A DNA stretch of 64,000 bases from a virus, in IMG/VR virus record IMGVR_UViG_3300035152_000011; one strand, 5' to 3'. The notes below the pieces were generated by a model. That model was given only the letters and a program-made list of their open reading frames with translations, made no database searches and was not told where the DNA came from. Numbering within the stretch: position 1 is the stretch's first letter; every line of letters starts with the position of its first letter. A program made the position numbers and the translations under genes. Shown in pieces: positions 19,728 to 48,175 of this stretch.

Positions 19728-21170
19728 CTAGTAGCCCCGGTTCGAGGTCGAGAATTCGATCAGGTATTGCAGGATGTGCTGCCGCAGCGAGTAGATGATG
19801 TACTCGTTGTGGTAGAGGTAGCTGCCCTTGCAGCCCATCACCGAGTCGTAGCCGCGCGGCGGCTTGGTGAGACTGGTCTGCGCGCTCTGGTACTTCTTGA
19901 TCTTCCCGAGCGCGACGTCAGCCACGAACATGAAGTACGTGCTGCCGCGACCGCGGCCTCCACCGAAGCGCCCGAACGAGTACTGTTCGCTCTTGCTCGC
20001 ACTGTCGGCGAAGTAGAGGCCGTTGCCGAACATGCTGCCAGTCACGTAGACGCCGGGCGGCCGCATCAAGAGGCCGTGCTTGCAGATACCGAGAATGTTC
20101 TGCGGGCCGGAGCCGTGGAACAGCGGCTTGACGTTGCCGACCTGTTTCATGGCCGGCGCGTGTTTCTTCTTCTGGCCGTTCACGCCGAGACGCCAGATGT
20201 TGGCGACGCGGCAGCTCCAGTGGTGGTTCGAGCCGCGTTGGCTTTGCACGTAGTCGTTGACGCGCTTCCAGCTCGGGTCGCTCTTGTCGAGCAGCTCATA
20301 GTCGCAGCCGATCTCCTGGTAGCGCTTCGCGGTGTCGCTGGTCGCGAACCCACTGACCAGTCCTTGCACGTCGCCGAGCAGGTCGAGCAGCTCTTGCTTG
20401 TCGTCGAGGATCTTGGCGTTGTTCAACGCCATCCCCTTGAGCCAGCGGTCCATCGCGCTTTTGCTCTGCGTCGGCCGTGGGCGCTTCTCCATGACCTGCG
20501 GGATCGCCGAGTAGAACTGGTTGGAGAGGTCGAGCAGCCGCCGGTCGATGGAATCGACGAGCGACGGGCTCTTCGCGAGTAGCGCCTGGACCTCGGCGAT
20601 GATGCGCTCACCTTCCTTGATCTGGGTGAGCGTCAGCGTGCCGAGCGGGTTCTTTGCGGTGGTGCTCAGCGTGCCGGAGAGCTGGGACCGAACGGCCTTG
20701 CCAGCTTCCGCGAAGAGCCGGTCTACCAGCTTGGCCGTCGCGGCCGCGAGCTGGAGCTTCGGCGCCTTCTTGTCACCGTCGGTCGCAGTGATCTTGTCTT
20801 TCTTCACATCGTCGGAGAGCACCTTCTGGTTGGCGACTGAGCTGCCGACTGCGGTCTGCGCGACCTGGACCTCGACGTAGCCCTTCCGCTTCGAGGTCTT
20901 CTCCTTCTTGAGCGAGTCGAAGGCCTCATCGAGCGCTGCGCGATTCTGGTCCGGCCAACGCTCTTCCTCGACGCCGTGGGCGCCGACGCGGCCGTAGCGC
21001 GAGTAGAGACGGTATTGGCTCTTGCCGTTGCCCTTCGAGACGTGCGCCTCGATCTGGTAGAATTTGTTGTTTCCACCAGTCAAGTCGCACTTGTTCAACG
21101 TCGCGACACGCACGACGTCGTAGTCGGACGGGAACGACCGCGTTCCGAATTTCTGGCTCTTGAGTTTCAC
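19728..21170 (-). CDS. Poly(ADP-ribose) polymerase-like protein with a WGR domain.
   Basis: WGR block KFYQIEAHVSKGNGKSQYRLYSRYGRVGAHG. PARP catalytic motifs LFHGSGPQNILGICKHGL (H-G-S), GNGLYFADSASKSEQY (Tyr) and YHNEYIIY (catalytic Glu). GTG start chosen for its GTGA overlap with the upstream stop. Confidence 0.75.
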   Translation of the reverse strand: MKLKSQKFGTRSFPSDYDVVRVATLNKCDLTGGNNKFYQIEAHVSKGNGKSQYRLYSRYGRVGAHGVEEERWPDQNRAALDEAFDSLKKEKTSKRKGYVEVQVAQTAVGSSVANQKVLSDDVKKDKITATDGDKKAPKLQLAAATAKLVDRLFAEAGKAVRSQLSGTLSTTAKNPLGTLTLTQIKEGERIIAEVQALLAKSPSLVDSIDRRLLDLSNQFYSAIPQVMEKRPRPTQSKSAMDRWLKGMALNNAKILDDKQELLDLLGDVQGLVSGFATSDTAKRYQEIGCDYELLDKSDPSWKRVNDYVQSQRGSNHHWSCRVANIWRLGVNGQKKKHAPAMKQVGNVKPLFHGSGPQNILGICKHGLLMRPPGVYVTGSMFGNGLYFADSASKSEQYSFGRFGGGRGRGSTYFMFVADVALGKIKKYQSAQTSLTKPPRGYDSVMGCKGSYLYHNEYIIYSLRQHILQYLIEFSTSNRGY

Positions 21171-21484
21171 TGACTCTTCTCCACGAATCGGTATTCGGTT
21201 GGCTGTTGCCCGCGCCCCGGTATGAACCTGGACTTGCGGGCCACTTTGATTTTCCCCTCGCGCAGCCACTCCTTGAGGGCGTGTTGCGCGCATGCTTGAA
21301 CCTTCTCGTACCAGTCGTTGTGCTGGCGGATGCCGATGTCACCTTCGAGGTCGCAGTTGCACGGGTGAAGCCGCTGTGCTGCTGCGAGTGCGAGCGCGTT
21401 CACGGTGAAGCTGTCGTTAGGGCCCCACTCAGCGGCCTCGTATCCGTCGATCTCCTCGACGCTTGGCTGTGGTAGGTCACTCAC
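21167..21484 (-). CDS. Hypothetical protein.
   Basis: 105 aa. Confidence 0.45.
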   Translation of the reverse strand: MSDLPQPSVEEIDGYEAAEWGPNDSFTVNALALAAAQRLHPCNCDLEGDIGIRQHNDWYEKVQACAQHALKEWLREGKIKVARKSRFIPGRGQQPTEYRFVEKSQ

Positions 21485-21827
21485 CGGCGGCTCCTTCGGC
21501 CTCGACGATGATCTTCAGCGACTCGACCCAGTTCGTCAGGTCGCTGACCTTCTGCTTCAGTTCCGCGATCTCACCATCCTTGACATGGAGCTTCTCGTGC
21601 GCGTCGTCGATCCAGCGCGTCAACGCGTACAGTCCCTCGGCCGCTCCAGCTGCCAACGCACGGTTCTTGTGGTCTTCCTTGCTCACGATCTTTCGTAGTG
21701 TGTTGGCCAACCAGGTCATGCCAGGACCAACGGTCGGGTCGAGCTGGATGCGGTACGGGCACGGCTGGTGTCCGCAGTTATCATCTTCGGGTGCGCCTTC
21801 GATCTGAATGTTTAGGAAGATCGTCAT
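21477..21827 (-). CDS. Hypothetical protein (coiled coil).
   Basis: Internal Met MTIFLNIQIEG gives an ATGA overlap with the upstream stop. Confidence 0.4.
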   Translation of the reverse strand: MTIFLNIQIEGAPEDDNCGHQPCPYRIQLDPTVGPGMTWLANTLRKIVSKEDHKNRALAAGAAEGLYALTRWIDDAHEKLHVKDGEIAELKQKVSDLTNWVESLKIIVEAEGAAGE

Positions 21828-22036
21828 TCGTGGGCCTTCCAGATGCGCGCAAGCACACTCACCATGCACTCGGCCTCGGCTTCAGCTTCGGGTGTCATTG
21901 TACCGTTGCCCGTGACCGCGTCGTTGTAGACTACGATCATCGCGGTCGGGGTTTTTAGGAGCGTCTGCGCCGAGCGGAGAACGTCGGCGGTAACACCGCT
22001 GTCCTGAACCGCCTTGTGTAGTTCGGTCCAGGTCAC
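21824..22036 (-). CDS. Small hypothetical protein.
   Basis: 70 aa. Confidence 0.4.
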   Translation of the reverse strand: MTWTELHKAVQDSGVTADVLRSAQTLLKTPTAMIVVYNDAVTGNGTMTPEAEAEAECMVSVLARIWKAHE

Positions 22037-47426: not shown

Positions 47427-47701
47427 CGGTTCGTCTCCTGGCTAGTGAGAGCTGAATTGCCCTCTACTAGAGAGACGGGGCATGCCTCGAAAAGAGGACG
47501 CAGCACGTTGAGGTACTCCCAGATGTACACGCCGAAGAATTCGGCGGCTTCGTGGTAGCCCATCTTGTTGATGCGCTTGTTGGGCGTCCAGCCAGCCTCG
47601 ATACGAGCCTGCCAGTAAGGCAAGCGCGCGCTCGGCTCCGGCGGTGGGCTCGTCCAGTACTCGGTGACGTCGGTGACGCGTGGTGGGGTTGGCGGTTTCA
47701 T
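47423..47701 (-). CDS. Hypothetical protein.
   Basis: 92 aa. Confidence 0.4.
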   Translation of the reverse strand: MKPPTPPRVTDVTEYWTSPPPEPSARLPYWQARIEAGWTPNKRINKMGYHEAAEFFGVYIWEYLNVLRPLFEACPVSLVEGNSALTSQETNR

Positions 47702-47707
47702 GGTCGG

Positions 47708-48175
47708 TTAACGATCCTCGGTCGTGTCGTCTGAGGGCTGCGCGATCTTCACTTCGGGCCACCAGGGAGCGAGCTTGCGAGCTGCGAGCTGCGCGGCGAG
47801 AGTCTTCACGACGTCGAGCGGCGCCCCGTGCGTGTTACGCGCGGCGCCGGTCAGCACGTTGCACTCGATGGTGACAATCAGCAGCTCGTAGCCGAAGGCC
47901 TGAGCGAGCGCTGCGTAGGGCGCTACCTCTTCCACCGTCGTGTTCGTGTTGTCCACGACGATAAGCGGGCGGCGCCTGGAAGTAAGGCACTCGGTGTAGT
48001 TGCGGAGGCACTCCTGGTGCGCGAGGCCGATCAGCTCGGGCTGGATCTTGCCATCGACGTAGAGCCCGACGAAGTGGTCGGCGCTGAAGACCGTGGCCTG
48101 CGGATAGTGCTCGCGGACGAAGTGGCTTTTGCCGCTGCCCGGGATGCCGCTGACGATGATGACGGTTCGCTTCAT
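47708..48175 (-). CDS. P-loop kinase, polynucleotide-kinase-like (AAA_33 family).
   Basis: Walker A IIVSGIPGSGKSHF and Walker-B-like LIVVDNTN as in PNK kinase domains. Confidence 0.55.
   Translation of the reverse strand: MKRTVIIVSGIPGSGKSHFVREHYPQATVFSADHFVGLYVDGKIQPELIGLAHQECLRNYTECLTSRRRPLIVVDNTNTTVEEVAPYAALAQAFGYELLIVTIECNVLTGAARNTHGAPLDVVKTLAAQLAARKLAPWWPEVKIAQPSDDTTEDR

Follow-up and report, generated by a model that had tools for sequence, protein, structure and literature searches.

We analyzed a 64,000-nt stretch of DNA from the IMG/VR virus record IMGVR_UViG_3300035152_000011 (hereafter, the window, by which we mean the whole of this stretch) that encodes Ku, an ATP-dependent DNA ligase, a family X DNA polymerase (Pol X), a LigD-type 3'-phosphoesterase (PE), a P-loop kinase resembling polynucleotide kinases (PNK) and a PARP with a WGR domain. 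The window has a G+C content of 60–66%, and tiling based on G+C at third codon positions (GC3) yields about 100 open reading frames (ORFs), nearly all on the minus strand, with most of the products matching neither Pfam nor PHROG families. A first-pass annotation, made from the letters alone, had singled out nine of these ORFs as a eukaryote-like toolkit for the repair of DNA ends, and all nine are present, at the positions that it gave, on the minus strand (Table 1). Profile searches recover seven of the assignments directly (Ku, ligase, Pol X, PE, AAA_33 kinase, WGR-PARP and FHA), and the eighth, a SprT-like protease, through a family profile only. The eukaryote-like label does not hold for the set: Ku, PE, the ligase and Pol X are of bacterial or viral type, and only the PARP architecture and, loosely, the SprT-like protease justify it. 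On balance, we think it somewhat probable that the element encodes, in dispersed genes, its own kit for the repair and joining of DNA ends.

Table 1 Repair-type genes of the window and the companion gene of PARP (positions within the 64-kb window)
Gene product	Position	Strand	Remarks
FHA-domain protein	13620..14441	-	273 aa; Pfam FHA E 1e-14; homolog in contig L009 42% identical
Conserved winged-helix protein	18636..19391	-	251 aa; weak wHTH Pfam match
PARP (WGR, helical regulatory domain, ADP-ribosyltransferase (ART) domain)	19728..21170	-	480 aa; H-Y-E triad intact
Mini Pol X	22033..22512	-	159 aa; palm and thumb only; triad D46-D48-N86
Minimal ATP-dependent DNA ligase (predicted)	22572..23450	-	292 aa from the ATG at 23450; 276 aa in the JGI call
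Stand-alone LigD-type PE	33805..34182	-	125 aa; Pfam LigD_N (PF13298) E 2.7e-16
Ku	40556..41488	-	310 aa; bacterial-type core and Lys/Ala/Pro-rich C-terminal tail
SprT/Wss1-like HExxH metallopeptidase with Zn ribbon and C-terminal domain	46308..47426	-	372 aa; family-profile support
AAA_33-family P-loop kinase, PNK-like	47708..48175	-	155 aa; Pfam AAA_33 E 6e-14
Generic calcineurin-type metallophosphoesterase	56914..57561	-	215 aa; Pfam Metallophos E 2.6e-4, borderline

The Ku protein matches the Pfam profile (PF02735) with an E-value of 1e-39 over positions 3–187 of 190, which encompass the beta-barrel and ring core, and the Lys-rich tail that had been noted is evident in the translation. Its nearest named cellular counterparts come from metagenome-assembled genomes of Gemmatimonadales (36–37% identity), and the identity to the Ku proteins of mycobacteriophages is about 30%. 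In bacterial Ku, the C-terminal region past the core engages the ligase, a basic extension being optional; residues D251-L252 in the C-terminal part of the window protein are invariant in the family alignment (A4). Scans of IMG/VR and metagenome contigs with the single Ku sequence, which were dominated by the low-complexity Lys-rich pattern, retrieved only bacterial Ku-LigD operons and nothing close. A tail similar to that of Ku (40556-40690 (-)), rich in Lys, Ala and Pro and reminiscent of histone H1 (weak match to Pfam HC2), is present in a second protein of the window (5229-5765 (-)).

The ligase consists of a nucleotidyltransferase domain and an OB fold, without a DNA-binding domain. The single sequence matches Pfam at E 1e-7, over the C-terminal part of the model only, and a profile built from the family matches solved ligases across both domains (archaeal ligase, E 1.6e-15; LIG domain of M. 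tuberculosis LigD, 2e-9; Lig4, 4e-8). In an alignment of 24 family members, motifs I (KxDG), III, IIIa, IV, V and VI (RxDK) are all invariant, with absolute conservation of K37, D39, G40, E87, R101-R102, E166-G167, K171, K185, K193, R276 and D278-K279; the KYDG signature that had led to the initial assignment of a ligase of about 290 aa is K37-Y-D-G in the translation. Judging by these motifs, the protein is predicted to be a complete minimal ATP-dependent DNA ligase. The family is small, with 29 members at E ≤ 0.001 among 5.8 billion proteins. The arrangement is not that of a LigD fusion, given that the ligase has no extra domain, PE has its own gene, at a distance of 10 kb, and searches of the window revealed no AEP domain. 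Members of the ligase family share a basic peptide, ERRKRIxxYxGPK, within the first 15 residues, in which R7, Y11, G13 and P14 are nearly invariant; we take this peptide to recall eukaryotic Ku-binding motifs, and it could be a motif that tethers the ligase to Ku or to DNA.

The Pol X gene is located 59 nt downstream of the ligase gene. In Pfam, the thumb is recognized at E 1.6e-11, and the palm, at E 3e-4, falls under the Pfam cut-off. The best solved relative is Thermus thermophilus PolX (residues 160–314, E 2e-21), and the AlphaFold (AF2) model (pLDDT 95) superimposes, in a Foldseek comparison, on the palm and thumb of the Thermus enzyme with a TM score of 0.88, a root-mean-square deviation of 1.8 Å and 39% identity, and on Pol beta, lambda and mu with TM scores of about 0.8. 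The palm and thumb are thus both in place and the assignment to family X is secure. The specific alignment to the Pol X of African swine fever virus (ASFV), on which it had been based, is not: this match covers only the thumb, at E 4e-3, and a specific likeness to ASFV was rejected in view of the far better alignment to bacterial PolX. The protein is a bacterial PolX reduced to the palm and thumb, an architecture that it shares with the ASFV enzyme; the 8-kDa dRP-lyase and HhH fingers domains, which a relative in IMG/VR contig L025 has, are both missing.

An unexpected feature of the mini Pol X is the replacement of the third catalytic carboxylate by Asn (LQVNLW, with N86, vs LQVDLR in Thermus), with the GS motif, D46, D48 and the nucleotide-binding thumb invariant. 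In Pol beta, loss of the third Asp, the general-base/metal-A residue, abolishes activity, and from the sequence, polymerase activity of the mini Pol X appears doubtful. Among 5.8 billion proteins, we identified only eight homologs: all five of mini size, down to 38% identity, carry Asn, and the three longer, more distant ones carry Asp. The Asn form is conserved from 99% to 38% identity on contigs of 98–247 kb, the 247-kb one being an IMG/VR contig (L023), and the Asp form is found on four IMG/VR contigs (L021/22, L024, L025 and L026). Because Asn is conserved throughout the mini clade while the relatives keep Asp, the D-D-N triad appears to be a clade-specific, selected change rather than a symptom of decay. 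The possibility that the gene is a pseudogene was rejected, the gene being conserved with invariant motifs.

The mini Pol X might be a non-catalytic or differently catalytic subunit that binds gaps or nicks for the adjacent ligase, in which case the kit would lack gap filling unless the host supplies it; we give this possibility slightly less than an even chance. The persistence of N86 in the presence of Asp-keeping phage PolX (L021, L024-L026) and the absence of the 8-kDa and fingers domains are in line with such a role, whereas the invariance of the GS motif, D46, D48 and the thumb suggests that binding of nucleotide and metal is retained. Furthermore, Asn can still ligate a metal, and ASFV Pol X works with only a palm and a thumb.

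Two further proteins could prepare DNA ends for ligation. PE is similar to stand-alone, archaeal PEs (3p43, 3p4h) and to the PE domain of Pseudomonas aeruginosa LigD (3n9b), with E-values of about 2e-14. The alignment with 3n9b (QHH / HDDFRFE / DHELGY in the window protein vs QKH / HYDFRLE / DHPLDY) places the His, the His-x-Asp-x-Arg and the His...Tyr elements as in the solved enzyme; the roles of these active-site residues are known from structures of the Shuman laboratory. The identification of this ORF as a LigD-type 3'-phosphoesterase is therefore upheld. We considered whether the gene could be the remnant of a degraded LigD and rejected this option, given that it is conserved, with 97% identity, as a gene of 125–126 aa in a related 35.7-kb contig (L014). 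The kinase is less clear-cut. Its best solved relatives are the kinase domain of Clostridium thermocellum Pnkp (E 2e-4) and mammalian PNKP (E 0.01), with which the GxxGSGKS P-loop and the SADHF segment (following Asp) align; AAA_33 is a broad family, such that the family-level assignment stands, whereas the assignment as a PNK is suggestive, not conclusive. Homologs of the kinase are encoded 8–10 kb from PARP in two IMG/VR contigs (L002 and L003); of the three IMG/VR contigs with PARP relatives L002-L004, two have an AAA_33 kinase within 10 kb.

PARP consists of three Pfam domains: WGR (E 1e-11), PARP_reg (8e-12) and PARP (3e-31). It aligns with the WGR-CAT portion of human PARP1 at E 6e-32, and the segments LFHGS, GLYFAD and HNEYIIY, aligned to 4dqy, keep the H, Y and E of the catalytic triad; with the helical domain, this makes it a putative enzyme of the PARP1-3 type. 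The protein is 76% identical to its counterpart in the 37.5-kb contig L009, 62–64% to those in the IMG/VR contigs L002-L004 and 23–28% to the PARPs of cultured phages. Its gene lies 862 nt downstream of Pol X, and the distance between the two is 0.9–1.7 kb in the window and L009. Directly downstream of PARP in the window, L002, L003, L004 and L009, there is a gene for a 251-aa protein (33–55% identity in tblastn), which is possibly a partner or target of PARP. The proposal that end joining is regulated by ADP-ribosylation is speculation; published work interprets phage PARPs, specifically those of jumbo phages, as modifiers of host proteins that act in host takeover (PMC7824862).

Two groups of related contigs retain the order of these genes. 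L014 reproduces one part of the set, namely, the kinase (59% identity), the SprT-like gene (86%), an AcrVA2-like gene, Ku (91%), a DUF8033 gene, a DFP-like gene, a methyltransferase, PE (97%) and a ScoMcrA_N-like gene; L015 and an 8.7-kb JGI contig, with a Ku 66% identical to that of the window, retain the stretch from Ku to the methyltransferase. L009 reproduces another part, in the order ligase position, Pol X (75%), PARP (76%), the 251-aa protein (55%) and FHA (42%), and also has a conserved 651-aa protein (51%) for which there is no phage or Pfam match. The chief argument that the genes act as a set comes from the recurrence of such links in unrelated viral loci. A 4.74-Mb Gemmatimonadota chromosome contains a prophage-like region in which the stop codon of Ku overlaps the start of the ligase gene (L016/L017); Ku is immediately upstream of the ligase in two IMG/VR contigs (L019, 40 kb, and L020, 113 kb) and 7 kb away from it in L069. 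Pol X is located 9 kb upstream of the ligase in L021/L022, and in L025, genes for a PolX of 308 aa, which has the 8-kDa and fingers domains, a LigD_N PE (E 8e-24) and the ligase form an overlapping operon, with a WGR-only protein encoded 3.6 kb downstream. L068, a contig with a phage portal gene, has a 130-aa WGR-only protein encoded 27 nt upstream of the ligase.

The link between Ku and the ligase is the best supported, and that among PolX, PE and the ligase is well supported by L025; membership of the kinase in the set is plausible, that of PARP is speculative, and the SprT-like protein has only a weak connection, in that its gene adjoins the kinase gene. The suggestion that the set is a split LigD with Pol X in the place of the Prim-Pol thus gains from the operon in L025, a different virus, and remains unproven for the window, where the mini Pol X has N86.

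Several observations weigh against a joint function in end joining, and they add to the Asn of Pol X and the weak likeness of the kinase to solved PNKs. The repair-type genes are spread over 44 kb among some 70 ORFs of unknown function, with gaps of 0.06 to 10 kb; therefore, co-regulation is not evident, and an operon arrangement is ruled out. In L009, the place of the ATP ligase upstream of the mini Pol X is taken by the HhH and BRCT C-terminus of a LigA-like protein (positions 1-687, plus strand), so that the ligase of the window may be a general (replicative) nick sealer of the element. Large DNA viruses mostly carry one ligase, of either type (PMC9503650). In cluster J mycobacteriophages, which also have Ku, the PNK-type kinase has an RNA ligase as its partner and is assigned to RNA repair (PMC3706429), and the reading of phage PARPs as host modifiers also points away from repair.

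These observations would fit a collection of independent accessory functions that share a large genome: the ligase, perhaps with Pol X, would seal nicks in replication or base excision; Ku would protect or circularize ends and might still depend on a ligase of the host; RNA or nucleotides would be the substrates of the kinase, alone or together with the metallophosphoesterase; PARP would modify host proteins by ADP-ribosylation in the course of takeover; and the SprT-like and FHA proteins would be unrelated. In favor of this scenario, besides the points above, most Ku loci in IMG/VR have Ku alone, and one locus (L018) has the ligase with no other repair gene within 10 kb. We nevertheless consider it possible rather than probable. 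It does not account for the tight linkage in independent viral loci, between Ku and the ligase (L016, L019, L020), PolX, PE and the ligase (L025), and WGR and the ligase (L068); no RNA ligase was found in the window; and we know of no role for LigD-type PE outside end healing. Across the swap of ligase types in L009, the position of a ligase beside Pol X is kept, which ties Pol X to ligation.

The joint rarity of the parts also argues against chance assembly. In a tblastn search of 50,697 phage records, Ku was detected in 86 (85 of them from Mycobacterium phages), PARP in 16, and PolX-like sequences in four; the PARP-bearing records are large phages of Xanthomonas, Stenotrophomonas, Klebsiella and Cellulophaga along with two huge uncultured phages. 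PE and the ligase of the window had no match in these records, and none of them combines Ku with PARP or PolX. By these counts, the combination of genes is more than chance. A profile scan of IMG/VR yielded 39 Ku loci, about five of them on contigs where a ligase adjoins Ku, and no PE, PolX, PARP, PNK-like or SprT gene occurs within 10 kb of Ku in any of the 39. Of the lineages seen here, that of the window alone has Ku, PE, the kinase and the SprT-like gene within 15 kb, with the ligase, Pol X and PARP on the same element. We found no description of a phage with this combination in the literature, in agreement with the first-pass annotation, which had called it undescribed on one phage genome; a review of jumbo phages mentions non-homologous end joining (NHEJ) in general terms only (PMC13282480).

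The three other proteins of the proposed toolkit are at most loosely attached to it. The SprT-like ORF on its own has no significant Pfam match (E 0.034), whereas a profile of 50 homologs detects human SPRTN, in its protease domain, at E 1.2e-5, and the Pfam SprT-like model (PF10263) recognizes 33 of these homologs at E ≤ 0.01; in the public protein library, relatives form 627 cluster representatives at E ≤ 0.001. H150, E151, H154 and H179 are conserved, and the AF2 model (pLDDT 92) has SPRTN as the top Foldseek match (probability 0.99 but E 0.12). The protein is probably a SprT/Wss1-like zincin with an N-terminal zinc ribbon, and its gene is separated from that of the kinase by 281 nt; any part in the repair of crosslinks would be conjecture. 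The FHA domain is confirmed, whereas the inclusion of this protein in the repair set is not, as no contextual link to repair genes is seen in other loci. The same applies to the metallophosphoesterase, for which the generic, borderline family match stands, with the uncharacterized Aquifex protein aq_1665 as the best solved relative (E 3e-4), and a contextual link is likewise missing.

Whether the window is phage DNA, as had been assumed, depends on gene content and relatives. Genes typical of large phages include the N-terminus of a ribonucleotide reductase, ThyX and a UvrD-type helicase (phrog_1967, E 1.7e-91; a family found in 83 phage records). PHROG families are also matched by a GHKL-ATPase/HExxH protein (phrog_6077, E 1e-49; 108 phage records), a tyrosine integrase, an HNH endonuclease, an RlaP nucleotidyltransferase and PAPS reductase, the window encoding two PAPS-reductase-like proteins. 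Proteins identical to those of the window are encoded in metagenome contigs of JGI 3300042731 (55 kb and 16 kb) and Logan SRR11713591, the longest contig being 143 kb; the 143-kb JGI record carries identical Ku, PolX and ligase. The PARP relatives L002-L004 are on IMG/VR contigs of 106–191 kb. The window is probably part of a large uncultivated phage or phage-like element of at least 64 kb, likely more than 140 kb. The host is possibly a high-GC bacterium of the Gemmatimonadota, a weak assignment made because the nearest named cellular Ku and the prophage-like ligase-Ku pair come from this phylum.

No capsid, portal, terminase or tail gene was identified with Pfam and PHROGs among the roughly 100 ORFs of the window or in about 12 kb of flanks covered by other contigs, and this, too, counts against a phage repair kit, although the absence of structural genes is not informative when only part of the genome is seen. 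Together with the tyrosine integrase and the ligase-Ku pair inside a bacterial chromosome, it could indicate a chromosomal island, a plasmid or another large mobile element whose genes serve the cell. We regard this as quite improbable, considering the dense packing of small ORFs on one strand, the lack of cellular housekeeping genes, the PHROG-specific and anti-CRISPR-like families, the reductase, ThyX and helicase genes, and the PARP, ligase and PolX relatives on IMG/VR viral contigs, one of the ligase contigs having the portal gene. By megablast, the window has no match in the 50,697 phage records (INPHARED) or among PLSDB plasmids, a 44-mer taken from it has no exact counterpart in IMG/VR, and scans of 185,579 species genomes for PARP and the ligase gave no useful relative. 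The description as a phage is thus probable, on the grounds of gene content and relatives, and not of a structural gene in the 64 kb.

The GHKL-ATPase-like protein with a C-terminal HExxH (26022-27356 (-)) has a homolog encoded between Pol X and the ligase in L021/L022 (L021, 5255-6616), and GHKL ATPases are encoded just upstream of PARP in L003 (6181-8361) and L004 (4657-6732), so this protein may be another recurrent neighbor. In the JGI gene tables, products at 42931-44019 (-) and 30290-30538 (-) are assigned to the AcrVA2-like and AcrF31 Pfam families; these genes fit an arms-race region and a rationale for repair genes based on nuclease damage. The two PAPS-reductase-like proteins, a SAM methyltransferase, a homolog of DFP/CoaBC-like flavoproteins and a ScoMcrA_N-like protein (28471-29571, 49409-50905, 34648-35400, 36455-37645 and 30565-31767, all (-)) could together be a DNA-modification module; the DFP-methyltransferase pair is retained in L014 and the 8.7-kb JGI contig.

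An intact 531-aa ORF resembling TnpB/Cas12f (17025-18620 (-); weak Pfam TNB match) separates the PARP and FHA blocks and looks like the insertion of an insertion sequence because it is missing from the same place in the syntenic L009. Just 3' of it, an ORF-poor stretch of 1.3 kb (15695-17024), without an Rfam match, is a candidate for a guide RNA or a transposon end. Inspection of the translations by eye suggests two sets of paralogs with common C-terminal motifs ('DALVAA...', 'DPDF.DAV.AA') that look like expanded families (57558-58223, 60020-60643 and 60645-61685; 23488-23985, 31893-32459, 32668-33162 and 33159-33641; all (-)). In the left flank, represented by the 16-kb JGI contig, the ribonucleotide reductase that begins at window positions 3-293 extends to 1170 aa, with faint intein and TSCPD matches, and is followed by two GNAT acetyltransferases. 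The window contains no tRNA genes or Rfam families, and no macrodomain, PARG, AEP primase-polymerase, RNA ligase or Mre11/SbcCD was seen.

For a dispersed end-joining kit, we infer the physical interactions, substrates and biological role as follows. A Ku homodimer would thread onto a double-strand end, the Lys-rich tail adding affinity for DNA, and would recruit the minimal ATP ligase to seal ends or nicks. PE would remove 3'-phosphates or 3'-ribonucleotides and the PNK-like kinase would phosphorylate 5'-OH groups, such that the ends become ligatable. At a gap or nick, the mini Pol X might fill short gaps or, given Asn86, act mainly as a DNA-binding partner of the ligase. In the most speculative step, WGR-PARP would sense breaks via WGR and ADP-ribosylate itself or its partners. 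The likely uses would be circularization of the injected linear genome and rescue of phage DNA cut by restriction or CRISPR nucleases, the latter fitting because of the anti-CRISPR-like genes nearby.

The very rare mix of genes suggests a virus able to heal and join broken ends without host enzymes. The original notion of a largely self-sufficient apparatus is partly supported, by the domains, motifs and recurrent linkage, and falls short in N86 of Pol X and in the membership of FHA and the metallophosphoesterase. If it is correct, prokaryotic viruses would for the first time be seen to have a self-sufficient end-joining system, given that the only known cases of phage NHEJ are mycobacteriophages that supply Ku themselves and rely on the LigD of the host; this would bear on genome circularization in large phages and on the survival of restriction and CRISPR cuts. 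A more far-reaching scenario posits a lineage of large phages with fully virus-encoded end joining (Ku, ligase, PE, 5'-kinase and remodelled Pol X), in which a WGR break sensor, stand-alone or fused to PARP, is integral and ancestrally linked. We deem this unlikely; if it were true, ADP-ribosylation would be coupled to break repair in the world of prokaryotic viruses, and family X would gain a new functional class in the D-D-N mini Pol X. The link of WGR and PARP to these genes would provide a prokaryotic setting for how break sensing became coupled to repair. In any case, the linkages define a small, testable family of enzymes, namely, a ligase of 276–292 aa, a PE of 125 aa and a Pol X of 159 aa, that is attractive for biochemistry and for genome-engineering tools. 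The Asp-to-Asn change in Pol X, an unexplained enzymological variant, and the WGR-ligase linkage are the most surprising elements.

Among known systems, the set resembles prokaryotic NHEJ, with Ku and LigD, and yet is not a LigD, having no fusion and no AEP domain. The bacterial Ku-LigD systems of Mycobacterium, Pseudomonas and Bacillus share with the window Ku, an ATP ligase and a PE with the same catalytic residues, as well as the Ku-ligase adjacency that is seen in the ligase relatives. The window differs in that each activity resides on a small protein of its own, the ligase is a member of a distinct, small family, and Pol X takes the polymerase place in the absence of an AEP primase-polymerase; the classical fused arrangement is seen in L010-L012. 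In the split NHEJ of the archaeon Methanocella paludicola, Ku, Lig, Pol and PE are separate proteins and the polymerase is an AEP Prim-Pol. The stand-alone PE and ligase alongside Ku are common to both, and stand-alone PEs (3p43, 3p4h) are among the best solved matches of the window PE, whereas the archaeal system is cellular, its polymerase is not of family X, and it has neither PARP nor a PNK-like kinase. ASFV encodes a palm-and-thumb-only Pol X of 174 aa (compared with 159 aa here) together with a viral ATP ligase, without Ku or PE; the similarity of the two polymerases is marginal (E 4e-3, thumb only), and that of the window is of bacterial PolX derivation (39% identity to Thermus) with Asn at the third Asp.

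The WGR-helical-ART architecture with H-Y-E is shared with human PARP1-3 and with PARPs annotated in large phages, such as Xanthomonas phages XacN1 and Xoo-sp13 and Cellulophaga phage phi17:2 (PMC7824862). The window PARP, with 23–28% identity to those of cultured phages, differs in being encoded 0.9 kb from the Pol X-ligase pair and on the same element as Ku. SPRTN and Wss1 have in common with the SprT-like protein a putative zincin core, HExxH and a downstream His, which matches the SPRTN protease domain at the profile and fold levels; the window protein has no detectable SPRTN Zn-binding/single-stranded DNA subdomain, PIP, SHP or UBZ, and instead carries a zinc ribbon at the N-terminus and a novel domain at the C-terminus.

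The closest phage precedent is the Ku of mycobacteriophages Omega (cluster J) and Corndog (cluster O), implicated in NHEJ-mediated genome circularization (Pitcher et al. 2006, as cited in PMC3706429). These phages, too, encode a bacterial-type Ku, and cluster J also has a polynucleotide kinase. Their Ku, only about 30% identical to that of the window, comes without DNA ligase, PE, Pol X or PARP and is reported to use host LigD, and the cluster J Pnk is paired with RNA ligase. The gene set of the window goes beyond this Ku-only strategy and recurs in pieces across uncultivated phages.

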